NCBI GenBank assembly: GCA_903813345.2
Contig: CAIIXF020000001.1
Coordinates: 4,526,001-4,590,000 of the forward strand
Length of the DNA stretch: 64,000 nucleotides
DNA from: Owenia fusiformis
Lineage: Eukaryota
Direction of reading: 5' to 3'
Numbering within the stretch: the first letter of the stretch is position 1; each line of letters opens with the position of its first letter. The translations under genes were made by a program, and so were the position numbers. The notes under the pieces are model-generated. The model had not been told where the DNA came from, did no database searches, and worked only from the letters and a program-made list of their open reading frames with translations. This document shows, piece after piece, positions 1 through 64,000 of the stretch.

Positions 1-1990
1 CTCACGAGCTTATGTTGCTATAAAATGTCGAAAAAGGGAAATTCAGAGAATATTTCTTCTGCAACGTGTGTATGCGCAAACACCAGTGCGCAGCTTCCGG
101 TTCTGTAAAATTGGTATATTGTCAGCTCTACCTTCCAATAACTAGAAATAGGTCCTTCCGTGGGAGATAAGAGCCCGAAACAGGAGTGTGTGTACCATGG
201 ATTTATTCAGTTACATACTCCCCTGCACTATTATTACCCACCAAAGGGCAGGCGGGGGACACTCATATTAACCCCCATAATGAACTTGACATTTCAAACG
301 TGGGGTTTGGGCTGATATAAAGATGGCAGCAGCAGTAGAAAAAGTAAAGATACACAGATTTATTTTTCTAATACCATTTAGCCTGTGGATACAAAAATAT
401 GACAGTGACCTAAAAGCAATCAATTCATGACCCAGATACTTAATAATCACGACCTGCTAATTGACACAGACCTACAAATGTGATCAAGGTTAATGGTATA
501 TTTGTTCAACAAAAGTGGAATCAACACAAATATGAATGATTGCATATTTTATTTGATAAATTATATCAGTACAGTGTATATATATTTTAAATAATACAAT
601 ATTTTATAATCAAAAAATATATAATGATTACTTGCATTACTAATTCAAATTAAATTAAAATTTGATTTTTTCCAGATCCCTTCTGAGCAAAACACCTTGA
701 TGTCTACAAAATGTAACAAGCTGAAAGATTTTTTTATTAAAAATCAATACGCATCAGTGTGCAGCCAATCACTTAATGCATCACTTCTGGTGATATAGTC
801 TCCTGATAAGAGCATAAAAGGAAGATGGTCTTACTAATTATTGATGGGTTGAAATGCTTCCTAAGTCAATTTGAAATTCAAAAGTTGAAAGTTACAAAAT
901 AATTTCAATGATCTGCTATATGCTCAAGCTAAATACATCTATTCAATTATGACCAAGGATTCAACAATAATATTGGCAGAAAAATATACAGTTTTTACTT
1001 TTTATGTACAAAAACTCAAAAACATGAGTTTCCCTGAAATTCAATGTACATTTTTCATTGAAATAACGCCCATGGACGAAATAACTGAGGGATGAAAATC
1101 TGGTGACAAAACTGATACATCTGCATGAAGCCTACATTTGCACTACAAGAAGACAGACGTAGACGATTCAACTCGATTACATTACATTAGGTAATTATTA
1201 GGTTTCTATACTGATAAATATTTGTCTCACAAAAGAAAGATACCATTTAATGATATTAACAGTTGAAAATGAAGCCTTGATGTTTTTCACTCTAATATAG
1301 ATATACAATATATACAGGAACTTTGTAATGTATATATTTCATACAATAGGCTAATCAATAAAATTTTGTCTGCAAAAACTAGATACCTTTAAAAAAGACA
1401 TGAAACAGATAGTACAGAGAAACTTGTGATTTTAAAAGTATGATATTTAAATTCATACATATATGTATGTATGGTTGTCAATATGTTCATCATAAAATCA
1501 CCATGACAATCAAACTGTATTACTAAAATATTAAAAAATAAATTAGGCAAAAAACCAATTTGGACGGATTGAAAATATGCATATATTTGCATGCAAAATG
1601 AGATCTCAGATTCAAAACACTATGGAAGTTTTTTTCCAATTTACATTTTACACAAAGTACAGATGTTAACAAGAACAAGGCACATATGGTCCATGATACC
1701 AGTACCAGTAATATAATTGTCTTTGTATTATTGTATACCATATTTTTTCCATGACTATTTCTAAGTACATGTACACTGTTCAGTATATGTAGAAGCACTA
1801 CTAACATTCTCAATATATCCACAAAGTATAGTTAGCACTCAGTCTTCCTATATGTATAATCTCAGTTCTTTTCATACTGGCATGACGAGTAGAATTAAAT
1901 CTCTTTTACATAGTGGTGTCACTATACCACGATCATAACTATTTGGAGAGAAATCGCTGCCATGATAACTGTTACCACGGTGATTTGCTG

Positions 1991-4900
1991 TTAGTTGTAA
2001 TCAAGGTGGCGGGGACTCGCTGCTGTGCGTGACATGGTATGTGATAGACTTCTCATACTGTCTGCTAGTTTTTCAAACTCTTCCCATTTTCTACTGTGCA
2101 TTTCAGTTTCAGTTTCTTTCATTTTCTCTATGCTACCAACTTTATTCTCAAGTGTGAATATGTGGTTCCTTAGTCGTAAAATCTCTTGTTCCTTGTCTTG
2201 TACCTGCAATTTAAGTATAGAACTTACAATTTTAAGTTTTAGAACTATTGATTGAACTATCCCTATCAATTTACAAATCAAGGAACCCATTTACATTTTC
2301 CTTGAATTCTTGTGGCTTGCTCCACTGAATGAGATATTTGTGGAACTTGAAGAATAAATTAGAAATTTACAGATTTGTATATAACTTTTTAATTTAGTTG
2401 AGCTTTAGGTTTTGTTTTATTATCAATCAGTCATTTCATTTCATTATACTGCAAAATTTCAAATGAAGTGGACCCCTAAGGTATGATTATTCAGCTTAAA
2501 CTTATATTTCTTTAAAGCTTTAAATATCTTCAATAGATATTTTTATACCAACAAACAAAAGAGACCCCTAGTCCCTTTGTACAATTTCCCACCTGTTTTG
2601 TGAGCTCAGAGACATGGTCTACAAGGAGCATCTTATCTCTACGCAGTGAAGTGTTCTCACTCTCTGTCACTGAGTGTACGCCTTGCACCTCTGCTAGCCG
2701 TGACTGTGTACTGGACTGATTAAGTTGGATGCTACTGTTCAGTGACTCAGCCTTGGATAGCTGAAACAGGAATGTGACTTGTAAACAACTTATGCACAAC
2801 ACATGATAACTTGACATAACATGTCGGTTTCCCAGAGAAACATCTATTAAGTATCAGCTGAAAAGCACAGCCTGGTCCCCATTAGCCCAACACATAAATG
2901 TTTTTCCCTGACTTGTTCATGACGTGGCAGCCCTGTACAAAGTGTACATGTACTATCAAACTGATACCTAATGTAATGGACTAGATACAAGGAGAAATTA
3001 TCTGATTTTTAATATTCAATATTTAGTAGGGATGGGACGGTTCGTTTCTGTTCGGTTCGGTTTTTCGGATCATCAGCCGTCGGTTCGTTTTTTTGGTTCG
3101 GTTCATTCATTTTAAGGATTTGTATTGATTGACATGATTAGCTGCTTTGTCTCTGACTTCACTGCTGACTATTCACAATATTTTATAGATGGAATTTTAT
3201 GTTATAGTATTTCATGAACAATACATATTATTTAGAATACACGACTAAAGAATATAGTACCAGGGACCACATGATTGATTACCGAGGGATACGAATACGC
3301 GGATACGAAACAAATCTAGTAAACGAGTGAGCTAGCAACAGACAAGACAGACAAGGTAGGGACTAGGAATATCAAAAATGTTGCTGTAAAACAGTGTTTT
3401 TAACTGTTTTATTGATACTTGACCAATGAAATATTAATCCGAAAAGGATCCGAAAAGCTGATCCGAAAGTAGGGCTGTGATCCGAAAACCGATCCGAAGG
3501 CTATGAACCGCGGTTTTTCGGTATTTCGGTTATCCGTCCCACCCCTAATATTTAGTCAAAGTGGTGTAATTTTTGAAATCTTGACACATAAAATCATATC
3601 TAGAAATGTGGTTTTCAAAATCATTTATATCTACTTCGAAAAGTGAATTATCGTTTCTTTTCTTGTACTGGCCAGATAATGTTTTCTTTTACTGGACATA
3701 TTTTCAAATGTATAACTATCAGATACATACGGATAGTTATGAAAAGTGACCTAATAAAATTAGTGAATATTAAACTTTAGAGGAACTTTTCCCTATATCT
3801 GCCACCTAATCTGACCTAAATTAACTACATGATGGTGAAACTGGAAACTTACTACTGGCAGCTTGGTAAATGAACTAGAACTAACCTGTTCCATAAGGCT
3901 CCTGCATCTGTCTTGCTCTGATTGTAGTAAAGCTTTGGTCTGGTTCACCTCAAACTGAATTTGTTTTATCTTCTCATTGGCGTGTACTAATTCTGTGATA
4001 TTCTGTGATTTTCGCACATCTATGTTTTCTCGTAAACTTCTTTCCTAAAATCAAATAAGATACAATTTAGATTATCTTCCCTATATGTGAACTGAAATCT
4101 ATTTCATAACTTAATCATGCTATAGTGTCAGGTCATATACAGTACTTCACATGAACATAAAGTGCTTTAAAATTTGAATAAATTGAGTGTTTGATTTTGT
4201 AACAATTCTGTGCAATTTGTGTTAAGGACATGCCAAAACACTGACAGTCCTCTCATGGACACATACCCTCTCTACTTGGTTCCTGAGCTCAATGACCTGC
4301 TGGTTGAGTAACGAGTTCTCAGATACAAGATGGGAGCTGTCATCTGAGAGTTTTGTGCGGAGGTATCGATCTTGATCTGCCTTCATCTCAGTCTCTTTAA
4401 GTTTCTGTCTTAGCATCTGGACTTCCTCCTAATCATTTAAACAAAACTTAATGTCAACATACATTGATATATCATATATTTTTTTTTTAATCACATTGTT
4501 CAATGTTTTCCGCTGTTCGGCTTTTTATAAAACAACTTTGAAATCACAATACTACTATGACATAGCACTGTATTGTTTCTTACCCTAAGATCATTGACTG
4601 TCTTGTCATGCAATATAACATTGCTGCTGTAATATTTCTCCTCTAGTTCTCGTAGATTAGATTCTGTTCTCAACATGTCTGACCTCTTCTCCTCAAGAGC
4701 AAGCTGAGTTAACTTGTGCTGTTCAATCCTTTGGTCCAACTGAAAATATAATAATATCGTCGTGGTGAATAATGGAATATGTATTTATTACAAATACAAG
4801 AAATCGATTGAAATACATATGCTAGACTGTATATCGATAACTAAAAATGTTAAACCAATAATCATATATTTAGAAAAATAGCCTATTAAAATGCTCAAAC

Positions 4901-45093: not shown

Positions 45094-46290
45094 ATGCCAA
45101 GTGCTACAGAAAAAGGTATATAGATGTAAACTGAAATATTCTCTCAAGACTGATTTCATATCGGAAGATTTTCCTTGGATTAAATCAGCTGCTAGTAAAT
45201 GTGCTCATTTTGAATGGAATTAAATGATTGTGATAAACTTCCTTTCAAGGTTCTTTTTGAAGGTGTTATATTTCAATAAAATTATACTGTACTATTGTGG
45301 TTATTATTCTAAGATTTTATTTTTGTAAGATTAGTGTCAGTGTTAAATAATTAATGATTTGTTAAAATTTGTACATTTTATTTCAGCGTTTTTCACTGTT
45401 TTTGTTGTTGCCAGCATCTTCTATGTGCTCTATGCTGTCATGATGGTACGTCGCTGGGAATTCACATTTCCTGTGGATTACACCTCAATAACCAATTGCT
45501 CACGATGTGGATGCACAGCAATGAAGAAGCAGCATTACATCATTTTGGCAATTCCTCGGAGTGGTTCAACTATGCTTAATGATATTATATGTCAGCATCC
45601 AGATATTGGATGCACTGACGAACCTCTACATATTGAAGAGTTGCTGCCAAGGGGCCTTATGGGAGCCTCCTCAGATAATGTAATGCAATACCTGCTACAA
45701 TCGGTTCATAAACTGGATTGTAATAAAGTTTATGGGTTCAAAGTTTTCACAGACCATTTATACGAGGCTAATATACCACTCAAAGATTTGATCAGGATAT
45801 TGAATAAACCTAAAATTATTTTACTTACAGAAAAAATATATTGGAGTCATTTGTTTCATTAAAAATCAGTCTAAGGACAAAAATTTGGAATATTCACTTG
45901 GATAGCCTGAAAAAAATTCCTCTCCCAACACCTCAAAATGTCACCCTCGCTTTGGACGAATATGTTTACTGGACAAGTAAAATTGAAAAGCGCTGGAAGG
46001 GGCCTCTTAAGGAGTTTGATACATACCCCAATAATATGAAAACCATGGTGACATATACGGACATAACTGAAAACAGGGATGTTATTATACCAAAACTTGT
46101 AGAGTTTTTAGGGTTCAAACCACAGTATTTTAGTCCAATGAATATTAAATTGAATCCAGCGCCGCTGGAAGATAAAATTGCAAATTATGGGGAGTTCATG
46201 GCTCAGTTAGAGAAACACAATGTTTCAATGTATCTAGATGTAGCACAAATGCTTCGATCAATTCATAAAACAAATGCTCGGAAACATTGA
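45094..46290 (+). pseudogene. Stf0/NodH-like sulfotransferase copy 1, 1-nt frameshift near 45827
   Basis: Mini exon 45094-45115 (MPSATEK) plus exon from 45387; PAPS loop IPRSGSTML. CTTACAGAA versus copy 2 CTTTATAGA shifts the frame; the rest is colinear with copy 2. Confidence 0.8.
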
Positions 46291-47478: not shown

Positions 47479-49383
47479 ATGCCGAGTGCTGCAGAAAAAG
47501 GTATATTAATTGAATTATTCTCTCAAGAATGATAACATCTTGGAAGATTATTCATAGGAACATTTGCTACATACACTTGTCCAAAAGGAATTAAATGATT
47601 CATATAAACTTGTTTTCATTGTACTTTAAAAGTACTTTTTTGATAACAATGTATAAATTTTTATGTCACCACCAAAAAGTGGTGACATATTGTTATGGTA
47701 TCCGTTTTTTTGACGGAGGTTGGTGGATGGTGATCGGCATCTGTAACAAATTCTTATTTGAACTTTTGATTAAAATTGAACTTCTAATCCAATTTCTTTT
47801 AAAATCATCTACATGTTTTAAAATGTTCAAATCTGACTTTATATTTAAGATTTGACCTTCAATGACCTTTTCAAAGTCAAAAAGGTCTTTTTTCAACTTG
47901 CTTCAAATTGACCAATTTTTTTACAAAATTATCTACAAGTTATCAGAAGTTCAAATCTGACTAGATTTGAGATTTGACCTCAACAAAAAGGGCCTTTTTT
48001 TAACTTGCTTCAAATTGACCATTTTTTCAAAATCATCTACAAGTTCTCAGGTTCTCAACGGTTCAAATCTGACTATAAATTTGACCTTAAATGACATTCT
48101 TAAGGTCAAAAAAGATTTGACCTTCAATGACATTCTCACGGTCAAAAAGGTCTTTTTTCATCTTGCTTCAAATTGACCAATTTTTTTTGAAAATCATCTA
48201 CAAGTTCTTGGAAGTTCAAATCTGACTTTGGATTCGAGATTCGAGGGTCAAAAAGGTATTTTTCAACTTGCTTCAAATTGACCAATTTATTTTTTCAAAA
48301 TCATCTACAAGTTCTCAGAAATTCTAATCTGACTAAGATTGAACTCATAATATTGTGAGCAACAAGGTGGTGACATTTTGTCATGTTAATGCCTTGTATT
48401 TTTCTAAAAGAGCGACGCTATTACATTTTAAAATTATATTAATGATTCGTTATAGGTTCATACATTTTATTTCAGCGTTTTTCACTGTGTTTGTTGTTGC
48501 AAGCATTTTATATGCACTTTATGATGTCATGATGGTACGTCGCTGGGAATTCACATTTCCTGTGGATTACACCTCAATAACTAATTGCTCACGATGTGGA
48601 TGCATAGCAATGAAGAAGCAGCATTACATCATATTGGCAACGCCTCGGAGTGGATCAACCATGCTCAACTACATTCTATGTCAGCATCCAGATATCGGTT
48701 GCACTAATGAACCACTGCATAATAAGTTAGAGTTGCTGCCAAGGGACCTTGTTGGAGACTCCTTGGATAATATAATGCGATACCTGTTACGATCGGTTCA
48801 TAAACTGGATTGTAATAAAGTTTACGGGTTCAAAGTTTTCACAGACCATTTATACGAGGCTAATATACCATTAAAAGATTTGATCAGGATATTGAATAAA
48901 CCTAAAATTATTTTACTTTATAGAAAAAATATCTTGGAATCATTTGTTTCAATGAAAATCAGTCAAAGGACACAAATTTGGAATATTCACTTGGACGGCC
49001 CAAGAAGAAATCTACATCTACCGCCTCAAAATGTCACGCTTACTTGGGGTGGGTATGCTCTATGGAGAAGTAAAATTGAAAAGCGCTGGATAGAGCCTCT
49101 TAAGGAGTTTAATACATACCCCAATAATATGAAAACCATGGTGACATATACAGACCTAACTGAAAACAGGGATGTTGTTATACCAAAACTTGTTAAGTTT
49201 TTAGGGTTCAAACCACAGTATTTTAGTCCAATGAATATTAAATTGAATCCAGAGTCGCTTGAAGATAAAATTGCAAATTATGGGGAGTTCATGGCTCAGT
49301 TAGAGAAACACAATGTTTCAATGTATCTAGATGTAGCACAAATGCTTCGATCAATTCATAAAACAAATGCTTCAAAACATTGA
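47479..49383 (+). CDS. Stf0/NodH-like type II membrane sulfotransferase copy 2 (~309 aa)
   Basis: Exon 47479-47500 (MPSAAEK, phase 1) plus 48476-49383; N-terminal TM helix, 5'-PSB loop ATPRSGSTML, GFKVF, 3'-PB-type LYRKNILESFVS, VTYTDL. Confidence 0.88.
47661..48397 (+). mobile_element. HINE-like element with satellite array, in intron of sulfotransferase copy 2
   Basis: Same termini and monomers as 42253-42815; absent from the copy 1 intron. Confidence 0.8.
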
Positions 49384-50131
49384 ATTTGAGTATATACTTT
49401 GTATACTACTGCACACTACATTCCTATCGAATAGAGGAGTTTCTATACAGCTTTGAATCCTTGCTAATTCTCGTTTTTTATGAGATTATAAGAGATTTGC
49501 ATATTAAACCTCTTATGACTTTCTTTTCCTTATTTTTAAGAACATATTTGAAACAAGTGAAAAGTTTTTTACAATAACTTTGAATCATACAGTTATGTTT
49601 TTAAATATTTGCCGTCTTTTTCAACTTTTCTAAGAAAAGTGTGGTGAAAAGCTCCACTGATACAATGTTAAAATTCTTTGGTTTATTCTTTTGAATAAAA
49701 GTTTTCATGATAAATCCCAATAAGTGCATTAACAGGGTCATTCCACAGTAGACCATTCAGACTTGATTGATAAATCTTTACTTTAAAGGGGCTATTGCAA
49801 ATTTTTACGACTTAAGCCTATGAAAATCTGGCCCACCAAAAAAACAAGTGCTGACATCTATCTATTCAGCTGTTAAGCAACTCCTTTCTTATTGGTGCAA
49901 CAAAATTATGAGACCTTTGCATTAAAACTGTTTTAAATGATAATGTAATTCCATTTTGGGTGAGCTTAATTCCATTACTTCCTCTGGTCTGGAATATGTT
50001 TTATTATCAGATTATTTTAATAATACTTGATATTATAAAATAAAACAACAAACTATTTTTTACTTATCTTTTATGAAGCATTTCTTTTATTCTCAAGTTT
50101 CCAAACATTTTCTCTCAATAATCAGCCGTTT

Positions 50132-50265
50132 AACCAACACCATAACGTCGACAGTAGTTGAAGCATTACACAGTTATAGTACACGCCTTGGACCTCGAGG
50201 TAGTTGGTCTGCTAATGTAGCAATTATTATCAAGTGTTATGACATAGGTTGTAGTTGCACCATTG
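50132..50265. repeat. 134-bp block identical to 57826-57959
   Basis: Base-by-base match from AACCAACACCATAACGTCGAC to GTTGCACCATTG. Confidence 0.95.
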
Positions 50266-52348
50266 CAGAGAATAAAAACAATCTCTAGATTTTACATTAT
50301 TTAAGTTGCTTGAATTTTGTTGAAATTCTGCAAACACCAGAATTGTTGAATCGTTAAGGTTGCCATTAATTAAGTCTTGCTTCAAGCCCTTGTACTCCCC
50401 ACACATCTCATCTTGTAGATAGGGATGGGATTCAGAGACATGATACAAGACAAATCAAAATTTTGTCAGAATAGAAGATAAAAATAGCAACTAAGGTACA
50501 AAGTAAAATGTGTTCAAATGGTACACAGCTATAAGTCTCAGAAATCTATTTGTAACATTCTTCATTTTCAGGGTATTTGGCCAGTTATTAGAGAGGTTAA
50601 GCTACACATTAATATACAAATCATGGACCTGAATGTATGTGCTCATGCTAAAGGTTTTTATCACTGTTAGTCTAACTATACCATGGCCTATTGGTATCTT
50701 ATATTTTACAAGATGAAATAAATTGATCACATTTTTAAGTTGTCATTTCACCATTAAAAATATTCAAAATCGGTAATGAAGAACTAAACTTTATCATGTA
50801 CACTACAACTTAGCTAAAAGCAGTCACATAATGAGCTGCATACCAATCTCCACATGCTCTCTACTGACTTTTAGACTAATCTGATGTCATTTTTCTGTGT
50901 GTGCACTGAATTTCACGTCCACATTGTTGAATACCTGTAGCTTAACCTCTCTTAATTTCATTCTGTGTTTTGATTAATGCTTTAAAATATACAAATAATG
51001 TTTCCTTACAAATTGCAAATGTTGCATTAGGCATTGTGTATTCCAATGAGAGATGTAACTGTCATTAGATGGCAACCTTACATTGCATGAAATGTCCATC
51101 GAATAACAAAATCTCAAAATACAATGCACCACTATAACTATTAAAATATACTACTTGCTGAATGGTCATTCATGTAAGGATACAGGTTTCCACATAAAAT
51201 CTTGATTTAACCATCACAATGTACTTAATATTTAGTTTTATTAGAGTAATATTTACATATTTTTCCAATGTATCGGTTCATCTACAAATTGAATACACAG
51301 AATACAGTCTACCTGTAATATATCATAGAAACCAATTGATCATTTTTTATTAAGAAGCTTCTTATTGTCAAGATTGAAAGGTATTTTGAATAATTCTAAC
51401 CAGGTGCCATTTGAAAGCAGTTGCCATGCCTACCACAGTTACATGCACTGGTGCCATTTGAATGCACGCAAAAATGAAATTCATTTAGTCAATTCTAAAG
51501 GTTGCCATGCCTACCACGGTTACATGCACTTTGAATGGAGCAACTATGGCTGGTTGAATGATAATGCTTTAATGATTAAATTCTCTCAACGGGCAACTTG
51601 GAACTACTACTAACACTATTTTTTAATATTTTTTTGATTTTCAGATTTTTATCTATTAACTACAACGCTGTTATAAAATAAATACAATGCTGCAATAAAA
51701 TTTAAAATAAAATTTAAAAAAACAGAATACAAAGCTATACCTTTGTAACAAACAATACATACAATATAGAATACCATTCCAGTAAATTATGCTTCTTTTA
51801 TTAATAATAATGAATATGATGTCATTGTTGCAAGTTCCATTGTCAATAAGATACACAGTGCTCACCTTTCAAAACCTACTTCTTGCAAATTTTGTTCAGG
51901 ATTTATTGGAATGGTATCACAATAAGCCATGTCATTCCATTTCTCTTTGTTTAAGGTTTGTCCAAATTGATTGATCCCCAAATCCCAGGCTTTTTTAGAT
52001 CCGTTATCTCACATTTCATATAACTGAAACTTGTGGAGATGATATAAGCTGTGCCTGTTATTATACAGGGTGTCCATTACGTCTCTTAACACAGACTGTA
52101 TTGTAATTGTAGAGACTGTATGAATACCCTGTATGAATATGATGACCAACAGATCAATGTCTGTTACGCATGGGGAATAAATACATGATATCCATAACAG
52201 TTTACTTTGCAACACATTCAGATAAGCTCAGATAAAAAATAAACTACAGTAATAGTACCATAATATCAGAGCATGTTGCTAATGAAACAAAGATGAGATG
52301 ACTGAAAAGATATCTTAATACCATTAATTAACCTATGAACAAAGTGTG

Positions 52349-52411
52349 CAATGATGGCACAAGAGTGTACAATGATGGCACAAGAGTGTACAATGATGGT
52401 ACAAGAGTGTA
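52349..52411. repeat. 21-bp tandem repeat x3 downstream of Hsp70 cassette A stop
   Basis: AATGATGGCACAAGAGTGTAC units. Confidence 0.9.
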
Positions 52412-52541
52412 GAATTATGACACAAGGATAAGTAAACCTTGATCAAGGTTAGATGACAAAAATACACTAACACTGATGCCAATTACTAGTAATGTCTTAA
52501 TATTGTTCTACTGTTTTGATTAATGTTCTTTGTGAGGCATA

Positions 52542-55127
52542 TTAATCAACTTCCTCAATGGTTGGTCCTGAGCCTCCACTGCCGGCTCCTGGGGCTGCGC
52601 CACCCCCTGGCATACCTCCTGGCATACCACCAGGCATGCCATCTGGCATTCCACCGGGGGCACCTCCTGCAGCCTGGTACAATTTGGTAATGATTGGAGT
52701 ACACACACCTTCTACTTCCTTCTGCTTGTGTTCAAACTCATCCTTTTCTGCCAGCTGCAAATATGAACACAATAAAAAAAAAAAAAGAAAATGCTTGGAT
52801 AACCAATTTGATGCCCAGATCCCCTCTTACTTTGCTACTGCCTCTGCTGTTAGGCAATGATAATTACAAAGTTGTTTAACAAATTGAGGGAGGGATTAAT
52901 GAAGGGTTACTGAGCATAAAGCCACCTAAGTGTCTCGCAAATTGACTGCAATTGTGTGGACTGAACTAGACAGCGAGACAGCTGGGATGCACATGCTCAG
53001 TCAGAGACAAATCTTAATTATATCAAATTCAGATGAAGATGATTTTTACTTGACTAATAAAGGGGAGATTGATTTTACTAAAGTCATACTGATCAATGTG
53101 AATGAATGTACAATACATGTACCAAGATAAGAACTTTATGCCACATTATTCCATTAACTGAGAGACATTGAATATTTCATGTGGTAATTTTGTTCACCTT
53201 ACTTTGATAAGCAAAATAAACTGATATTTCTACAATCATCCAAGCATTACATTAAATTTTTCTCTGAAATAAAACAAAGATCACAAACCTGATTTGCATC
53301 GAGCCAGCTTATGACGTCATTACATTTATCTGTGATCGTTTTCTTGTCTTCTTCACTGATCTTGTCCTTCAACTTTTCATCTTCAACAGTAGACTTCATA
53401 TTGAAGGCATAGCTTTCAAGTGAATTCTTAGCACTAATTCTGTCTCGTTGGTCTTCATCCTCCTTTCTGTATTTTTCAGCATCATTCACCATACGCTCAA
53501 TTTCTTCCTTCGACAGACGACCTGAAATGCATTATGGTACATGTGTCGCAATAATTTCTCATTCAGATGTTCTGCAGCATCCAGCCAAAAGGCATGTAGG
53601 TTATCGCAGACAATTTCAAACGATTCTAACTTGAATTATGAATATTTTCTGATCTTGAACATTTGTGTATCTTTTAGATCCAATCATTATCTTCAAGAAA
53701 AGTAGCCTATACATAATGATAATTCAGTTAATTAGACCTAAGTGATATTGCTAGTTAAATATCTCCGAGTTTGTTTAACTTTATTATTACTGTATATAAT
53801 TTTCTTTTTAGATAATGAAGACAAGAAAATTCAACAACAAATCTTGAATATTTATTTTTTCAAGAGAAAGCTTACAATTGAATTGTTAAATGAATAGGCG
53901 CAAGGTATGGTAAAATATGTTAGGTCTTCTAGGATTTGTTGAATTTTCTTGCAGAAATCCCCAACTCCCCCTCCATCCATTTTGTCCGATCACCGGGCGT
54001 GGTCCCACTCTGGATTTTATATTTTTTTGAATATAACATATGGCCATTATTTCAATTTTGTGAGTCATTTTTTCTTAACTTAAAGTGTGTGCAAAACAAA
54101 GAATGAATTTCCAATGGCCAGCTTTTTAGATTGTGCATGGATCCTACATTACATCACCCAAAAGCCCCTATTTTAAAATTAAGTGTAATCTACTCACACT
54201 CACTTTGAGTAACTTCTGACCTGAGAACACTGTAACATCTCATATATGACATTATGGCACCTACCCTTATCGTTAGTGATAGTGATTTTGTTTTCTTTGC
54301 CAGTGCTCTTATCAACAGCAGATACATTCAGGATACCATTGGCATCAATGTCAAATGTCACCTCAATCTGAGGAACTCCACGGGGTGCAGGAGGGATACC
54401 AGTTAGCTCAAACTTGCCCAGAATGTTGTTGTCCTTGGTCATAGCACGCTCACCCTCATATACCTGGATCAGCACACCTATTGACACACAGAAAGAAAGG
54501 TATGGTATTATAAAATGAAGAATTCGAGAAGTTATTTCTAGAGAAAACACTCATCGAAACAACAACAGAACAGTCAACAAATGACCCTGAATAGAGACCA
54601 AGGATTTACCTGGCTGATTGTCAGAATATGTGGTGAATGTCTGTGTCTTCTTGGTTGGAATAGTTGTATTGCGCTTGATAAGAGCAGTCATGACACCTCC
54701 AGCAGTCTCAATACCCATAGACAATGGCGCTACATCAAGCAACAACAAGTCTTGGACAGCCTCATCTTTGTCACCAGACAAAATGGCAGCCTGTATGGCT
54801 GAAACAAGTTAAATAGAAGTGCATTTCTTGTCTTACATTAATAACACTAGTAGCAATCTAGATGCAAGGACATCTCTGTATCAAGCTAGACATCTAACTT
54901 GTGGCACCAACATGAGTTTGCCATATATGGGTGTACCAACCATGAGTTCAGAAACCTTAGCATGATCATCTAATATGCATACCTGCCCCATAAGCCACAG
55001 CCTCATCAGGGTTGATGCTTTTGTTCAATTCCTTGCCATTGAAGAAATCTTGCAGAAGCTTCTGGATCTTTGGAATACGCGTAGACCCTCCCACCAATAC
55101 AATATCATGGACTCCACTCTTGTCCAG
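52542..55127 (-). CDS. HSP70: Hsp70/Hsc70 3' cassette A (end of nucleotide-binding domain, substrate-binding domain, GGMP repeats, GPTIEEVD); no 5' exons of its own seen
   Basis: Exons 54983-55127, 54610-54798, 54265-54477, 53289-53521, 52542-52754; signature [15 protein letters not shown]; no stops or frameshifts; canonical splice sites. Confidence 0.93.
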
Positions 55128-55761
55128 CTGAATAAAAATTCATAAAATATTTCCAGTAAGAATATGACAAAACATCGCTCCCTGACAGTGTGGTAGGCAT
55201 AATTTTGTTTTTACAAGCTGCGTCCGGGCACTTGCCAGGGGTTGGATAAATAGGTCAATTCAAGTTGTTTTTCATCTATACACATATAATTCACACATCA
55301 GATACACGAAGGTTATGTTATGGGAGGTTTTGGAAATGGGGTATATCCTGATGGAAATATAGATATCTTACGAAGGGCCAAGAGGGTTTGAAGTAAGATA
55401 TCATATCTCCCATGGGATATATCCCATATTCAAAACAGCATCATATAACTAACTTTACCTATGATAAGTGAGGTTTCACAAGTGAGGTTTTCAGGACACG
55501 CATCTCCAGGTTTGTTTTCTTTTTATTTTCCAAAAATCCATCAACATTTTGGTCAAGAAAATTCTACTGTCTGTTGCATCCATATTGACAATTTTGCGAC
55601 AGCAAGATATTCCAACAAATTGACTGTTTCTACACTGAACAAATTTTCCCTGGAATAATGGAATGGGAGATACAAAGTTGCCAAAGATATCAGTTCTATA
55701 TCCCGCTATTATGTAACTGAAACCTCGCTTGTCATTGGATAAACATCAGTATAAACCATAA

Positions 55762-56349
55762 TACAGAAGTCAAATAAGTCCTGTCCCCCATGCTACAGCT
55801 AAAACCTTAATAATAGATGGTACCTAGTGTAATATACCATTGGAAAGATCATCCAAAGTTACAATAACTCACCAAATCTCAGTCAAGTATTTTGGATGGA
55901 CATCTAGTTAGCTTGCCACTTCCAGCAGCTTTCACTGTTCATTGTGTCAAAATGACATGGATTCGACCTCAGCAATGTGTCAAAAAGTTATATTTTTCAC
56001 ATTGCACTTCTTACAAGTTTTCGTTACCATTGCTCCTCTGTATGTTACACAAATAACCCTATCCACAAATTGGTTAAATTAACTGCCATTTTTACAAGTG
56101 TTGTCATCTTGAGCTCCTTTGATTTTTTTGTGCCCGATTTTTTAAATCCTGCCAAATTCTAATGTTTCTAGGTCTATGGTCACCAAAATTGATACAATCA
56201 ATTTGGGACACTGATTGATAGTATCAGATGCATGCCAAACTTCGTTAACCTCTGATGATCTTTCCAATGATATATCACACTTGGTATATAAACCATATAT
56301 TTTGGTTTTGGCTGTAGATGGGGGGACAGCACTTATTGGACACCCTGTA
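55762..56349. mobile_element. Tc1-like MITE remnant
   Basis: AATAAGTCCTGTCCCCC / GGGGGACAGCACTTATTGGACACCCTG-TA imperfect TIRs. Confidence 0.55.
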
Positions 56350-58679
56350 TATCCTAGGACTATCTTGTAATACACTTGCCAATCTGTTTTGCCATCCCTG
56401 AAGGTCAACACATCAATGCAAACCTACAAATGTAATAATCAATCACTTTCATGGGTGAAAGTTCAACAATTAGCAAACATTGATTACAGTTACTTGATAC
56501 CTACTTATCGATTTGAAAAAAAAAGATTCTGCTAGTGCCAGTGAACATTGTCATTACAAAAAGATTTAACCTGTTAACTGAGCCCATAACCCCACATTAA
56601 ATAGCCACAAACATGAAGAATTGGGAAATAGTGCAAAATTAATCTAAGTAACAGTATAATAATAATCACCCTTGGTATATGCAGCTAACGAAAATTGACC
56701 GGTACGGGTCAAAAGCTGGACCGGTACGGGTTAACAGTTTTATTTGAATTTAAAACAGCCATAACTTGCTCAATATTGACTTCCTCGTGTCTAATTTGAA
56801 ATATATGATGCCTCCTGATGCTTTTAAGTACCCCAATTTTTTACAGATTTTTAAACGGACCAAAACTCTCTAAATGCGCATTTATGCTCTTTTCTCTCGC
56901 GAACGACTGTCTCATTTTCACGATAACTTTTATTTAGTACTTCTAACATATAAGATCTATTTTTCCCCATCAAGGTATGATGTAAATGACATGCTATTTA
57001 CATCTTGTGAGTTTCAATGACGCGAGTTTGATTTTATAAAAAATGCCAAACTTTGTGACAAAGAATTTCATCCTGCTTGCAGCAAGACGGACCGGTTCGG
57101 GGCAATGCGTATTATCACCCTTGGCGTATACCAAGGGTGATAATGAAGCGCCCTTTAAATTATAAAATCAATACAGTGCACTCGTGTATATAAAAAAAGG
57201 TACCACAAGGCATTACAGATGCAGAACACTGAACACAAAAAAGTTGGAGACGCCACTTCTGATGACAGAAAAACTAGTGATTACTGCATCGATTTACTTT
57301 TATGTACCATGATGCCACATTTCTTCTATTTCTATTTTCGACAAAATCATGTGACCATGGTTTATTTGAGCTATCCTGTAGATAGTTTTATCTAAACCAG
57401 CAAAGATATTTTAACGATCATTCAGTCCGGAACACATGAAAAAGGAAATGGATGATAAAGTCAACAGGAACTTCATTTTAAAATAAAATTGGTGGAGACT
57501 TAATTTGGCGATTTCTATCCATCCGCCAAATTAAAGCAATTTTCAGTAATGCCTTGGTCACATTTGCTCAGATTTTCACTACAACACCCAGGTAATTTGT
57601 TCAAATTTGAATACAATATTGAACAAAACACACAATCTACCAGGCGCCGGCCGATGGATCGGAACAAATGCGACCCAGGCATAACTGGTAAAGTAAACGG
57701 CCATACACATTCGATAAACTTCCCTTATTTACTCAATTCAACAACAAACTGTCAATTCTATTTATATAGTATTTCTTTTATTCAAGTTTTAGCGCTTTTC
57801 TCTTCTTTTGAGTAATCAGCTTTAAAACCAACACCATAACGTCGACAGTAGTTGAAGCATTACACAGTTATAGTACACGCCTTGGACCTCGAGGTAGTTG
57901 GTCTGCTAATGTAGCAATTATTATCAAGTGTTATGACATAGGTTGTAGTTGCACCATTGGAGTGATAACAATCCCTACACTTTGCATCATTAAAATGCAA
58001 GTAAAATGTTTCCTTAACTCAATGTATTGGATTTTTAAAATTTGTCTACTCGCATGGAATTCTTGCTGGATAAACAGAGGGATTGTCATCTTGAAAATAC
58101 ACCCACACAGCGAATACATTGGATCTTCCATTAGAAGTTTCAAAACCTCTATTAGGATTGATTGCTGCATGTTACCATGAACATTTGTACTTTTGAGGTT
58201 GTAACTGAGGAATGGTTGTCGGCAAATATCTTGAGAACAATCAATCGAGCTAATATCAGTATCACATCACACCACAACCAAAAATGAGAAGATTCTTCAG
58301 CAGTAAGCTCAAGTACAATGATCAACATGATTGATGCTGTTTGGATGTAATTTCAAAAACTCTCAATGGACAACTGTGAGCTACTACAAACACGATTTTT
58401 GAACATTTTACGATTTTTTTGAGTATTTTTGATTTTTTTGTTTCAGGACAGAACATTTAACCACAACATTATAAACATGATACAAAACAATAAATATTGT
58501 AAGTTACTGACAATGATAACTATAAGTAACTTGTACAATGGTACAAGGAAGAATTGAACTTGATCAGAGTTGGATATAACATAAATGATTCGTTGACATC
58601 AACAATCATGCGAATCAATGTCTATTAGTATTGTTCTATTATTTTGATGCTTGGAATAATGATGATTGTGATGCAAGTT

Positions 58680-61600
58680 TTAATCAACTTCCTCGATGGT
58701 TGGTCCTGAGCCTCCACTGCCAGCTCCTGGGGCTGCCCCACCCCCTGGCATACCTCCTCCGGGCATACCTCCTGGCATACCACCAGGCATGCCATCTGGC
58801 ATTCCACCGGGGGCACCTCCTGCAGCCTGATACAATTTGGTAATGATTGGAGAACATACGCCTTCTACTTCCTTCTGCTTGTGTTCGAACTCCTCCTTCT
58901 CTGCTAGCTGCAAACACAGACACACAAACCATTAAATATAACCAACTAATCCTAAGAGCAATCGCATTTTGAACAAAATGTACAACTAGAAATACTTAAT
59001 AATATCCTCATTAACACACTACCATAGGAAAGAAAAGTTGCAATTTAACATTCCGCTCAAATATGCATAATTAAAAAAAATAAGACAAATTTTTCAGAAC
59101 AGAAAACTGAAATGGCTCCTTTAAAATTCACCAAGCATGCCCGAAAAAATCCTTGGAATATCATATCCATCATTTTTCATACTAAGAAGCATTAAGAAAA
59201 TATCAGGTTCACAAACCTGATTGGCATCGAGCCAGCTGATGACTTCATTACATTTATCAATGATTGTTTTCTTGTCTTCCTCACTGATCTTGTCCTTCAA
59301 CTTTTCATCTTCCACGGTAGACTTCATGTTGAAAGCATAGCTTTCCAGAGAATTCTTTGCAGTAATTCTGTCTCGTTGGTCTTCATCTTCCTTTTTGTAC
59401 TTCTCTGCATCATTCACCATACGTTCAATGTCCTCCTTTGTCAGACGACCTGCAATGCATTATGGGAAATAATGTATATACATTTGAATATAATATACAT
59501 TTGTAAAACAAACAATTAGAACTCACAGCCAAAAGAAACATTAGCTCCTGGATAAGGATCACATTTAAAATAAATTCTGATAACACCCACACAAAACACT
59601 TACCCTTATCATTGGTGATTGTGATCTTGTTTTCTTTGCCAGTGCTCTTATCAGTTGCAGATACATTAAGGATACCATTGGCATCGACATCGAATGTCAC
59701 CTCAATCTGAGGAACTCCACGGGGTGCAGGAGGGATACCAGTTAGCTCAAACTTGCCCAGAATGTTGTTGTCCTTGGTCATAGCACGCTCACCCTCATAT
59801 ACCTGGATCAGCACACCTATAATCAACAAGAACAAAAATTATAAGAGAAATAGAAAATACTACAAAATACTGTAATTTCTAAATGTATAATAAATAGGGA
59901 CATAATTGAATTGGATGTGTTTTACACATATCTCGATTTTATTTGATCATTAATCACTTTGCAAACTGAAGATGGATGAAAACATCTGCCTCAATTCATA
60001 GCATAATGACTAGAAAAATAGCAAATTCTAACTAATACCCTCTTCTTATTCCCCGAGTTAAAGACGGGCTATCCCTAACAGCAACTACCAACAACAAAAA
60101 TCGTGCGACAAAAATATTAACTTATTTTGGGGTGGACTAATTCCTATACATAAATAAAATACCTAAAATCCCGAATTGAAATCCAAAATTTACCTGGCTG
60201 ATTGTCAGAGTATGTGGTGAATATCTGCGTCTTCTTGGTTGGAATGGTAGTGTTACGCTTGATAAGAGCAGTCATGACACCTCCAGCAGTCTCAATACCC
60301 ATAGACAATGGCGCTACATCAAGCAACAACAAGTCTTGGACAGCCTCATCTTTGTCACCAGACAAGATGGCAGCCTGGACAGCTGAAATGAAATATGCAT
60401 TTTGATATCAAATGAAAGCTCATTATCGCAGTGGCATTACAATCTCAAAAAATATAAACAAGGCACAAACATGCAAAACATCACCATTTGCCATTTGTTA
60501 AACACCCCCAGTGTTATTGGACGATAGGAACAGTGTCTCTTACACTGGTTTATTAAATCAAAATCAAACAAGGCATTAACCTGACAAAATGTCACCACCT
60601 AGTTAGGTCATTGAAGGTCAAATGTCAAATCTTAAGTCAAATCTAAAGTCAGATTTGAATTTCTGAGAACACGTAGATGATTTTGAAAATTTTTTTTAGT
60701 CAATTTGAAGCAAGTTGAAAAAAGACCTTTTTGACCTTGAGAAGGTCATTGAAGGTCAAAGGTCAAATCTAAAGTCAGATTTGAACTTCTGAGAACTTGT
60801 AAAGTCAAATTTGAACTTCTGAAAAGATGTAGCTGATTTTGAAAAAAAAATTGGTCAATTTGAAGCAAGTTGAAAACAGACCTTTTTGACCCTTTTTTAC
60901 CTTGAGAAGGTCATTAAAGATCAAATGTCAAATCTAAAGTCAGATTTGAATTTCTGAGAACATGTAGATGATTTTGAAAAAAAAAATTAGTCAATTTGAA
61001 GCAAGTTGAAAAAAGACCTTTTTGACCTTTTTTGACATTGAGAAGGTCATTGAAGGTCAAATGTCAAATCTAAAGTCAGATTTGAATTTCTGAGAACATG
61101 TAGATGATTTTGAAAAAAAAATTTAGTCAATTTGAAGCAAGTTGAAAAAAGACCTTTTTGACCTTTTTTGACTTTGAGAAGGTCATTGAAGGTCAAATGT
61201 CAAATCTTAAGTCAAATCTAAAGTCAGATTTGAATTTCTGAGAACACGTAGATGATTTTGAAAATTTTTTTTAGTCAATTTGAAGCAAGTTGAAAACAGA
61301 CCTTTTTGACCTTTTTTGACCTTGAGAAGGTCATTGAAGGTCAAATGTCAAATCTTAAGTCAAATCTTAAGTCAGATTTGAATTTCTGAGAACACGTAGA
61401 TGATTTTGAAAAAAAATTTAGTCAATTTGAAGCAAGTTGAAAACAGACCTTTTTGACCTTTATTTACCTTGAGAAGGTCATTGAAGGTCAAATGTTAAAT
61501 CTAGTCAGATTTGAAGGTCAAATGTCAAATCTAAAGTCAGATTTGAATTTCTGAGAACATGTAGATGATTTTGAAAAAAAATTTAGTCAATGTGAAGCAA

Positions 61601-62544
61601 GTTGAAAAAAGACCTTTTTGACCTTATGAAGGTCATTGAAGGTCAAATGTTAAATCTAAAGTCAGATTTGAACTTCTGAGAACATGTAGATGATTTAGAA
61701 AAAAATTGAAGTCAGTCTAAACAGTATTTGTTAAGTTATAGGAAGTTGTAAGAAATTGTTACAGACGCCGGACGCCAACCTCCAACCACCGTCGCAAAAA
61801 AACGGAGACCATAACAATATGTCACCACTTTTGGTGGTGACATAATAAACCAAACAATGACGAAGTTATAAAAGTCGAGTTGCAGTGTGCTATTAACCAA
61901 GATCTAGTAATTGTAAATCTTATCCAAATGACATTTGGTAAGTGTAATAATTACTGTACGTAAGGTAATTTAGTTTGCAAAGCTTAAAAATTCAGAGAAT
62001 AATGAAGTTTATTTTTTGATATCTGCCAAATTTATTAGCTGCAAAATCATAATTTCTCAAATTTCATGAAATTAACTAGGGGGTCATTAACAGAAATTTT
62101 GTAGAGTGACGAATTAGTAAATCAATTGTTGTAACCATGGATATAATGACGTCACAGTTAGAGAATAATGGATTTTATGAATTAAACTAAGAAGTTTCTG
62201 TTAATGGCCCCCAGGAGTACAGGATATAAAAGTACATATAACTGCTTGATTTTCCCTACATTTTTTCTCAAACATGTGAAACTTCTCATTTAAACATTTT
62301 AGAAAAATATTTTCTCATGTTGTCAACAAGTGTTCATCACCTAATTGCACCGAATCTACCAATACATACAAAATTATATAATAAATATTAGTTCTATACC
62401 TGCTCCGTAAGCTACAGCCTCGTCAGGGTTGATGCTTTTGTTTAATTCCTTGCCATTGAAAAAATCTTGCAGAAGCTTCTGGATCTTAGGAATACGTGTT
62501 GATCCTCCCACCAACACAATATCATGGACTCCACCCTTGTCGAG
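58680..62544 (-). CDS. HSP70: Cytosolic Hsp70/Hsc70 (HSPA8-like), 3' cassette B; 5' exons presumably lie beyond the window end
   Basis: Exons 62400-62544, 60194-60382, 59604-59816, 59217-59449, 58680-58907; GGMP repeats and EEVD; intron-containing and U14-hosting, like cognate hsc70 genes. Confidence 0.95.
60566..61845 (-). mobile_element. HINE-like element with expanded ~120-130-bp satellite array
   Basis: Reverse complement of the 42253/47661 family; roughly 8-9 tandem monomers between conserved termini. Confidence 0.85.
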
Positions 62545-62669
62545 CTGAATATAAAAAAAAGTCGATTAGATATTATGAAATAAAAAACATATGTTAAGAA
62601 TTAACTCAATGGAATTTTGCAAATGTATTTAAAAACCATGAAATTTAGTACTGAAGTATGTTAATATAT

Positions 62670-62771
62670 GTTAGGTAGCATCAGACATCCAAGGAAGAAT
62701 ATGTAACATTAACCAGTTAAGGTTTTCAGTAACTGCATATATGCAGGAGCTCTCCTCATTTACTACCTAAC
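62670..62771 (-). ncRNA. U14: U14 (SNORD14)-type C/D box snoRNA in an Hsp70 intron
   Basis: Minus strand: C-box-like ATGAGGA ... CTTCCTTGGATGT-CTGA (U14 domain B plus D box, antisense to 18S ACATCCAAGGAAG), closed by a 9-bp terminal stem GTTAGGTAG/CTACCTAAC. Confidence 0.88.
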
Positions 62772-62936
62772 ATTTACTATATCACTGCATTGCATGGTAC
62801 GTTATACTATATCTTGTATATATCAACATTTGCTCACCTGTCAAATCCCCAAAATTAAATTTGAAGAAATTCTTCAGAAGAAAACAGGATTTATTTTTGC
62901 AAGAGATTTCACTGGTTACAATAGTAATTCTATTCT

Positions 62937-63240
62937 TATTGTCTTCAATGGACATTGCAGTCATACGTGTCTCGGACTCTCCAAGGATGGATAAGCACCT
63001 CGACTTTTCACATGTCAAATTCAGTTTTTCTAATTGTTTTATTTTTATTGTCTTCAATGGACATTGCAGTCATTCGTGTCTCGGACTCTCCAAGGATGGA
63101 TAAGCACCTCGACTTTTCACAACATGTCAAATTCAGTTTTTCCAATTGTTTTATTCTTTATTGTCTTCAAGGGATATTGCAGCCATTCGTGTCTTGGACT
63201 CTCCAAAGATGGATAAGCACCTTGACTTTTCACGACATGT
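62937..63240. repeat. ~110-bp tandem repeat x3
   Basis: ATTGTCTTCAATGGACATTGCAGTCAT..GTGTCTCGGACTCTCCAAGGATGGATAAGCACC units. Confidence 0.9.
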
Positions 63241-64000
63241 CTACGTGTAGTTTGAGATCAAACATATAACCCTTACAGGACACTTCACACTGGGTTTGTG
63301 ACTGTAATTAGGTCTAAAATCAATTAGAGAATTCTAAAAGGAGAAAGTGATGATTCACTTAAGATTGCAGGTGATTGATCAAGACTTATGATCTAGTTCA
63401 ACATTCTGCATCCATGTGATTGTGTAAATAAAAGATAACTAGAAAGAAATATAAAATGGTTTGCTTTATAAATGGTTAGAATTTTAGTTCTACTCTTGGT
63501 ATGTCTTCCAAGGAGACATCTGGCATTTGCATCTCAAACCCTTTAAAAAGACTGGCAAAGTTTCCAATTTTTTAACTTCACCTTTACATAACACTCCAAA
63601 CTGTGGGTCTGTGACTGTAATGTAAATGCAATTAGAGAATTCTAAAAGCAGAATCCATAAAGCAAGTCTTGAGTTAGTCAAACATTCTAATCACATTGTG
63701 TTAATACTTGTATGACTTTAAGTACTTTATGTCATAAAACTCGGCAAGAACTTCTTCAAGCCTGTTATTATAAGCATGTGTTTAACTTCGCAACTTCTTT
63801 GTTGATTGTCTAATTATTGACAATGCATGAGTTACTAATAACTAGACAACTGAAACTGATCATAGTCTTTTTTAACTTGTTGACCTTTTGACTGTTTGAA
63901 AGTGGACTTATCCAACTTAGTCAAGAATGAAGACAACTTCTTTTATGGCGTAATACTTACTACCTAATGTCCTTAGTTTATAAGCTTAGAAGTACAGTGC

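Follow-up and report, generated by a model that had tools for sequence, protein, structure and literature searches.

Two tandem five-exon tails of an Hsc70 gene in Owenia fusiformis, one of them a candidate alternative terminal cassette

Hsp70s are among the best-studied proteins and diversify as whole genes; to our knowledge, the known diversity of Hsc70s and Hsp70s consists of complete genes. Human HSPA8 has a short isoform with an altered C-terminus, without a duplicated cassette. Genes with interchangeable 3' ends are found in Drosophila, where lola and mod(mdg4) combine common 5' exons with one of several 3' terminal cassettes that have poly(A) sites of their own, the cassettes encoding divergent zinc-finger or FLYWCH modules, some of them trans-spliced. 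In vertebrate GNAO (G-alpha-o) the final exon pair, 7-8, is duplicated and spliced in a mutually exclusive manner (PMC5896119). The locus considered here lies in a stretch of 64,000 nucleotides from Owenia fusiformis (assembly GCA_903813345.2, contig CAIIXF020000001.1, positions 4,526,001 to 4,590,000), which is referred to below as the window and whose first nucleotide is position 1. It holds two consecutive copies of the last five exons of an Hsc70 gene, the second of which, block A, may serve as an alternative terminal cassette to the first, block B.

Two Hsc70 tail blocks and the search for a second head

The window is AT-rich (G+C 34% overall, 30-39% across 2-kb steps) and its genes have spliceosomal introns. 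Two 3' blocks of an Hsc70 gene of the HSPA8 type lie in tandem on the minus strand, B at 62544-58680 and A at 55127-52542. The exon coordinates, which were taken from the sequence and then verified by script, are as follows, together with those of the two intervals that flank the exons upstream.

62545-64000, minus strand: visible portion of the intron upstream of block B, with no Hsp70 exon by tblastn or tblastx
62400-62544, minus strand: block B exon 1, 145 nt, end of the ATPase domain, starting LDKGG after a phase 0 acceptor; tblastn match
60194-60382, minus strand: block B exon 2, 189 nt; tblastn match
59604-59816, minus strand: block B exon 3, 213 nt; tblastn match
59217-59449, minus strand: block B exon 4, 233 nt; tblastn match
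58680-58907, minus strand: block B exon 5 with stop, 228 nt, GGMP repeats and EEVD end; tblastn match
55128-58679, minus strand: gap from the B stop to A exon 1, 3552 nt, with no Hsp70 exon and with small inverted-repeat elements resembling miniature inverted-repeat transposable elements (MITE-like)
54983-55127, minus strand: block A exon 1, 145 nt, starting LDKSG; Pfam HSP70 profile positions 323-368 of 599
54610-54798, minus strand: block A exon 2, 189 nt; tblastn match
54265-54477, minus strand: block A exon 3, 213 nt; Pfam HSP70 positions 432-499
53289-53521, minus strand: block A exon 4, 233 nt; tblastn match
52542-52754, minus strand: block A exon 5 with stop, 213 nt; tblastn match

Exons 1-4 are of equal length in A and B (145/189/213/233 nt), exon 5 measuring 213 nt in A and 228 nt in B, and the positions and phases of the introns are identical. 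All eight donors are GT and all ten acceptors AG, the acceptor of A at 55127 retaining its polypyrimidine tract. Both blocks open in phase 0 after ...ttcag with LDK(G/S)GVHD, and both reading frames run uninterrupted to a TAA after ...EEVD, the C-terminal motif of cytosolic Hsp70s (...PTIEEVD in each). A first reading made from the sequence alone (the sequence-only reading) had described a common phase-0 acceptor, the same intron positions and intact frames, and the script-checked exons, GT-AG throughout, bear out that description. The profile matches in A (Pfam HSP70, PF00012) have E 6.3e-18 in exon 1 and E 2e-28 in exon 3, and their positions imply that each block begins within the ATPase domain, with about 49 residues of that domain still to come. 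After these, each block encodes the linker, the complete substrate-binding domain and the tail.

The encoded proteins, of 330 aa in A and 335 aa in B, differ at 13 of 330 aligned residues and by a 5-aa indel in the GGMP region, with exon nucleotide identities of 89-94%. The sequence-only reading had proposed two chaperones differing in the substrate-binding domain; the 13 substitutions and the indel do exist, but the blocks are 96% identical and the changes conservative. In tblastn, A and B both align to residues 327-617 of a 655-aa Hsc70. Cassette identity to lophotrochozoan Hsc70s is 85-89%, Patella reaching 89% over the cassette. The best protein-database match to A exon 4 among 120 listed is from Haliotis (87% identity), and the best of 80 kept metagenome-contig loci, most of them of ~2 kb and cDNA-like in appearance, is 84% identical; neither protein-database (<=87%) nor metagenome-contig (<=84%) matches include a close relative, and transcripts of the organism itself are absent from the protein database as well.

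An ATPase-domain head was sought by tblastn of the whole window with two full-length Hsc70 queries (655 and 657 aa, E <= 10). The search returned 25 high-scoring segment pairs, 18 of which fall within the ten exons and cover residues 327 onward, the other seven being scattered with E >= 2.6. An ATPase-domain exon (residues 1-326) was found for neither A nor B anywhere in the 64 kb, and there was not one tblastn segment pair in the gap or in the 1456 nt of 62545-64000. These two intervals likewise gave no tblastx match at E <= 0.1 to 80 cDNA-like Hsc70 loci. Block A is without ATPase exons of its own inside the window. As no Hsp70 exon lies in 62545-64000, the ATPase exons of B would be located beyond 64000. 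That N-terminal Hsp70 exons are absent between the B stop and A exon 1 had been claimed from inspection, and both searches were empty there.

Selection and gene conversion in the two tails

Among 993 aligned sites there are 72 differences between A and B, of which 61 are at third codon positions. Nei-Gojobori (NG86) estimates from our own script give 0.018 nonsynonymous substitutions per nonsynonymous site (dN) and 0.325 synonymous substitutions per synonymous site (dS), with dN/dS 0.057. By our arithmetic, neutral evolution on the A branch alone would add about 0.16 x 770, or ~125, nonsynonymous changes, whereas both branches together show 14.

The direction of change was judged against 73 full-length Hsc70s (the 630-700-aa proteins among the 120 listed). 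At the 13 differing sites A is the derived copy at two (V to I, K to R), B at five, and six are ambiguous, a 2-vs-5 split that taken alone is not significant; 54 of the 73 proteins are closer to A than to B. In a maximum-likelihood tree (75 rows, quick search), A and B are sisters (98 in the Shimodaira-Hasegawa-like approximate likelihood ratio test, SH-aLRT), with terminal branches of 0.010 for A and 0.044 for B. The derived-site counts exclude A as a decaying copy. In exon 1, where the ATPase domain ends, 13 nucleotide differences are accompanied by a single amino-acid change; this exon is as constrained as the other exons, which argues for its translation as part of a complete ATPase domain. 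The G+C content of third codon positions is 0.445 in A and 0.469 in B, that of the introns is 0.29-0.37, and there is no AT drift in A (weak/strong base differences 29 vs 21).

Judged by its substitutions, block A has clearly been held by purifying selection and coding for essentially all its history; block B is likewise under purifying selection, the same ratio applying to it. The sequence-only reading had proposed that A is maintained and had named dN/dS between the cassettes as a check; the value of 0.057, a terminal branch of A no longer than that of B, and intact splice sites and codon composition all agree with it. Two other accounts of block A were rejected. It is not a partial-duplicate pseudogene, since its frames and splice sites are intact, dN/dS is 0.057 and its branch is short. 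Nor is it a haplotype-duplication artefact, since a dS of 0.33 and unalignable introns far exceed allelic divergence.

The introns have diverged far more than the exons. Introns 1-4 measure 184/132/743/534 nt in A and 2017/377/154/309 nt in B. Alignment scores of all four intron pairs, and of the sequence that precedes exon 1, do not exceed those of shuffles, and blastn with a word size of 7 yields only matches of 21-23 nt, both in intron 3, the 21-nt match abutting the intron 3 acceptor. The introns had been called largely unalignable, and shuffle-level scores and matches of this length say the same. Much of the 2017-nt first intron of B is a minisatellite (60800-61705; unit ~136-148 nt, 3-5 copies, 89-93% matches), inverted copies of which are found at 47658-48340. 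The intron that precedes B contains 2.8 copies of a 113-nt tandem repeat (62931-63241).

The 3' flanks tell a different story from the introns. With the same blastn settings they contain three collinear homologous blocks and a homologous AATAAA:

58510-58675, minus strand: B 3'-flank block 1, homologous to A 52390-52539 (62% over 172 nt; B +5..170, A +3..152)
58328-58417, minus strand: B 3'-flank block 2, homologous to A 51555-51641 (74% over 91 nt; B +263..352, A +901..987)
57735-57994, minus strand: B 3'-flank block 3, homologous to A 50039-50304 (83% over 272 nt; B +686..945, A +2238..2503)
57826-57959 and 57782-57777, minus strand: exact 134-nt core and AATAAA within B block 3
50039-50304, minus strand: A 3'-flank block 3, with exact core 50132-50265 and AATAAA 50091-50086

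The flank of A is that of B lengthened by ~1.5 kb of extra sequence. The two blocks had been credited with different 3' untranslated regions (UTRs), which is right as to length, A carrying the ~1.5 kb extra, but not as to origin, the three collinear blocks and the AATAAA being homologous. The UTR of A also contains a 21-nt tandem repeat of 4.2 copies (52339-52426). The 134-nt noncoding core is identical in both flanks, stands ~45 nt before the common AATAAA and is far better kept than synonymous sites; it may be a conserved UTR element or a fresh conversion tract. The RNA fold of this 3' element is unremarkable (z = -1.77), and an exact 31-nt piece of it had no match among metagenome contigs.

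The differences within the coding sequence are clumped. Stretches of 140, 110 and 77 nt are free of mismatches (P <= 0.0004 when mismatch positions are shuffled), a pattern which indicates that short tracts of gene conversion, limited to exons and 3' flank, have partly homogenised A and B. Taken together, saturated introns, homologous 3'-flank blocks and clumped coding differences point to an old duplication whose exons and 3' flank have been partly homogenised since. Conversion of this sort raises the prospect that A is a silent relic whose exons look intact only by copying from B. The process it calls for is real, as attested by the three coding runs and the exact 134-nt core of the 3' flank. 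However, outside the identical runs nearly every difference is synonymous (third positions account for 61 of the 72; dN/dS 0.057), B is the more derived of the two copies, and a neutral recipient should show a dN/dS near 1 on its own branch. A silent relic is therefore a very improbable account of A. An untranscribed A whose similarity is due to gene conversion alone was one of the outcomes that the sequence-only reading had regarded as fatal to it; conversion tracts are indeed present, yet conversion alone is insufficient because the unconverted parts differ almost only synonymously.

The gap, the cassette and the lost-head alternative

If A is translated, its mRNA must acquire a 5' part from somewhere, and the explanations of block A differ in where that part would come from (the sequence letters that go with their weighing are SIGNIFICANCE). 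The gap itself contains little that is recognisable. None of its 10 longest open reading frames has a Pfam match at E <= 0.1, Rfam has no match in 49-64 kb, the window has no tRNA, and neither runs of N nor a visible join is present in the gap. Its most distinctive feature is compositional:

56501-58000, strand not applicable: stretch without CpG depletion, observed/expected 0.84-0.91 vs a window mean of 0.39

This stretch starts where the homology of the B 3' flank ends (57735) and extends ~1.2 kb towards A; it could represent an island of promoter-like character or a young insertion. About eight such islands occur in the window, the others near 3, 9, 12, 24.5, 37.5, 43 and 48.5 kb; they are 1-1.5 kb each, with observed/expected 0.7-1.1, several lie near gene 5' ends, and as a class they may be unmethylated promoters or young insertions. 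Two inverted-repeat structures were noted in the gap, one with arms of ~93 nt (55769-55861 / 56246-56341; 82-85% complementary, 384-485 nt apart), the other a MITE-like pair of 21-nt terminal inverted repeats (56662-56682 / 57124-57144) enclosing 441 nt. The CpG-rich stretch weighs only lightly in what follows, because there are about eight of its kind in 64 kb and part of it is MITE-like.

One use of such a stretch would be as a promoter within the gap, from which A would be transcribed by itself, with a short leader exon, to give an N-terminally truncated and mostly substrate-binding protein, or else a transcript trans-spliced to the common ATPase exons in the manner of Drosophila mod(mdg4). 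That the sequence between the tails is not CpG-depleted, as is often the case at gene 5' ends in the window, speaks for this, as do the intact acceptor and 3' end of A. Several features speak against it. Exon 1, with the last ~49 residues of the ATPase domain, is strongly constrained, which is hard to explain without the rest of the domain; an in-frame stop lies directly upstream of 55127 (open reading frame 54966-55139); and the first in-frame Met is found only in exon 2. Perfect trimeric heat-shock elements are absent from the window, and sites with one mismatch (36 in the window vs ~26 expected) are not enriched in the gap, where there are three in 3.5 kb. In addition, the candidate promoter stretch is in part a MITE-like element. 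Transcription of A from its own promoter is accordingly unlikely, though a little less so than a silent relic.

The explanation preferred here, tentatively and as something possible that falls short of probable, is that A is an alternative terminal cassette spliced to shared upstream ATPase exons. The anatomy of the blocks, the selection on them, the conversion signal and the absence of a second head can be read from the window itself; the steps that would join them are the following. In an Hsc70 gene of the HSPA8 type, rich in introns, an old tandem duplication would have copied the last five exons together with ~1 kb of the 3' flank, leaving the minus-strand order head - tail B - tail A. Both tails have since been under purifying selection, short conversion tracts in exons and 3' flank homogenising them in part. 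The donor of the exon preceding B exon 1, beyond 64000, would join the acceptor at 62544 to give a transcript ending at the poly(A) signal of B, or the same donor would skip the whole of B, join the acceptor at 55127 and give a transcript ending at the signals of A. The products would be two Hsc70s with a common ATPase domain that differ at 13 mostly conservative positions, in one GGMP unit and in the 3' UTR. As all cassette exon boundaries share their phase, mixed B/A cassettes would also stay in frame. With 96% identity between the proteins, the arrangement likely serves regulation (UTR, poly(A) choice, expression) more than a change in client specificity.

The cassette explanation is favoured by the parts that have been conserved, namely those of the mature mRNA (exons, 3'-flank blocks, AATAAA), the introns being without significant homology, and by the presence of tandem terminal blocks that agree in intron positions and phases and each possess a separate stop and poly(A) signal. 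The ten intact exons, the constraint on A and the lack of a second head in the 64 kb also speak for it, and GNAO provides a documented precedent for such an architecture. Other considerations weigh against it. The putative shared exons would fall outside the window, beyond 64000. The acceptor of B is transcribed first and looks as good as that of A, and B has its own poly(A) signal, so that skipping B requires regulation; no selector or docking sequence is conserved upstream of the two acceptors beyond ~12 nt. The lack of CpG depletion at the 3' end of B is more in keeping with a promoter located between the tails than with a plain intron, though this weighs only lightly. No cassette of this kind in any Hsp70 was found in the literature searched, and whole-gene tandem copies of Hsp70 are commonplace.

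The last point leads to a different history, in which A belongs to a second, full tandem Hsc70 paralogue that lacks its head because of a deletion, very recent and possibly polymorphic, or because of a loss in assembly. The evidence of selection fits equally, since A would have been in a full gene for nearly all its history. The family usually diversifies by whole-gene tandem copies. The CpG-rich stretch from 57735 would then be at the expected site of a promoter, and the CpG-poor 55.1-56.5 kb would be the remaining intron. On the other hand, a deletion must be very young, A having been unconstrained for no more than about 0.01 substitutions per site by our estimate; the loss would have struck the more conservative copy; and a head-exon remnant, N and a visible join are all absent from the gap. 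Furthermore, words sampled from the A stretch occur in the DNA runs of three studies, at least half of them being present (7 rows), so the A sequence itself is not a one-off, its adjacency to the gap aside; the indexed runs that contain these words include no RNA run. A recently beheaded paralogue is on balance also less than probable, only slightly behind the cassette explanation, and a far more serious contender than either a private promoter or a relic. Two histories satisfy the coding past of A, head-tail-tail with both tails used, or head-tail-head-tail with a head just lost; nothing in the window separates them cleanly, and the missing-head history is equally simple.

The remainder of the window contains other genes. 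An intronless sulfotransferase-like gene is present in two tandem copies on the plus strand, 48343-49383 and 45347-46290, which are 89% identical over 984 nt, and the inverted copies of the minisatellite of B intron 1 lie between them. The downstream copy reads as one open frame of 346 aa with matches to Pfam Sulfotransfer_3, Stf0 and Sulfotransfer_1; the upstream one falls into two frames (171 + 158 aa) and is therefore probably frameshifted. An exon-like open reading frame at 14297-14704 (+) matches the VPS11 N-terminal beta-propeller (PF23341, E 1e-20), which places a VPS11 gene ~38 kb from the Hsc70 tails.

Significance and comparison with known systems

Were the cassette explanation true, chaperones would be diversified by a new route, splicing that exchanges the whole substrate-binding half together with the 3' UTR, and the locus would be a natural experiment on the contribution of the C-terminal half and the GGMP tail. 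It would also be the first cassette-type diversification in the Hsp70 family, though the gene architecture is already known. The full proposition, which is that one Hsc70 locus yields two cytosolic chaperones by way of two five-exon cassettes, with conversion limited to the parts of the mature mRNA and never reaching the introns, and that this is the first such case among Hsp70s, is put forward slightly more guardedly than the cassette explanation itself. If A is instead a beheaded paralogue, what is seen at this tandem Hsc70 pair amounts to a structural variant of an ordinary kind or to an assembly fault. Even then the locus would be a clean example of concerted evolution limited to exons and UTR, the introns having diverged beyond recognition, and would show that long-term purifying selection can be legible in an orphan-looking copy.

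The locus resembles HSPA8-type Hsc70 genes in its Pfam HSP70 match, its GGMP-type tail and its EEVD end. The Hsc70 isoforms X1 and X2 of Mya arenaria were considered as a parallel and rejected, since they differ only by a 5-aa segment that sits in the ATPase domain. With truncated Hsp70 pseudogene fragments the locus shares a copy without ATPase exons beside a full-looking one; unlike such fragments, A has no premature stop, frameshift or broken splice site, and its dN/dS is 0.057. Unlike lola and mod(mdg4), the Hsc70 locus has just two cassettes, which encode near-identical chaperone parts.

The closest likeness is to GNAO (PMC5896119). The Hsc70 locus differs in belonging to the Hsp70 family, in the extent of the duplication (five exons as against the two of GNAO) and in its tails, which are much more alike (96% amino-acid identity) and bear signs of conversion; the transcripts of GNAO are documented, whereas the Hsc70 locus is known from genomic sequence. 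In both, a terminal exon block has undergone local tandem duplication and strong purifying selection acts on both copies. In each case, one copy evolves faster than the other, and the isoforms of GNAO share all their upstream exons (PMC5896119), as those of the Hsc70 locus would if A is indeed a terminal cassette.

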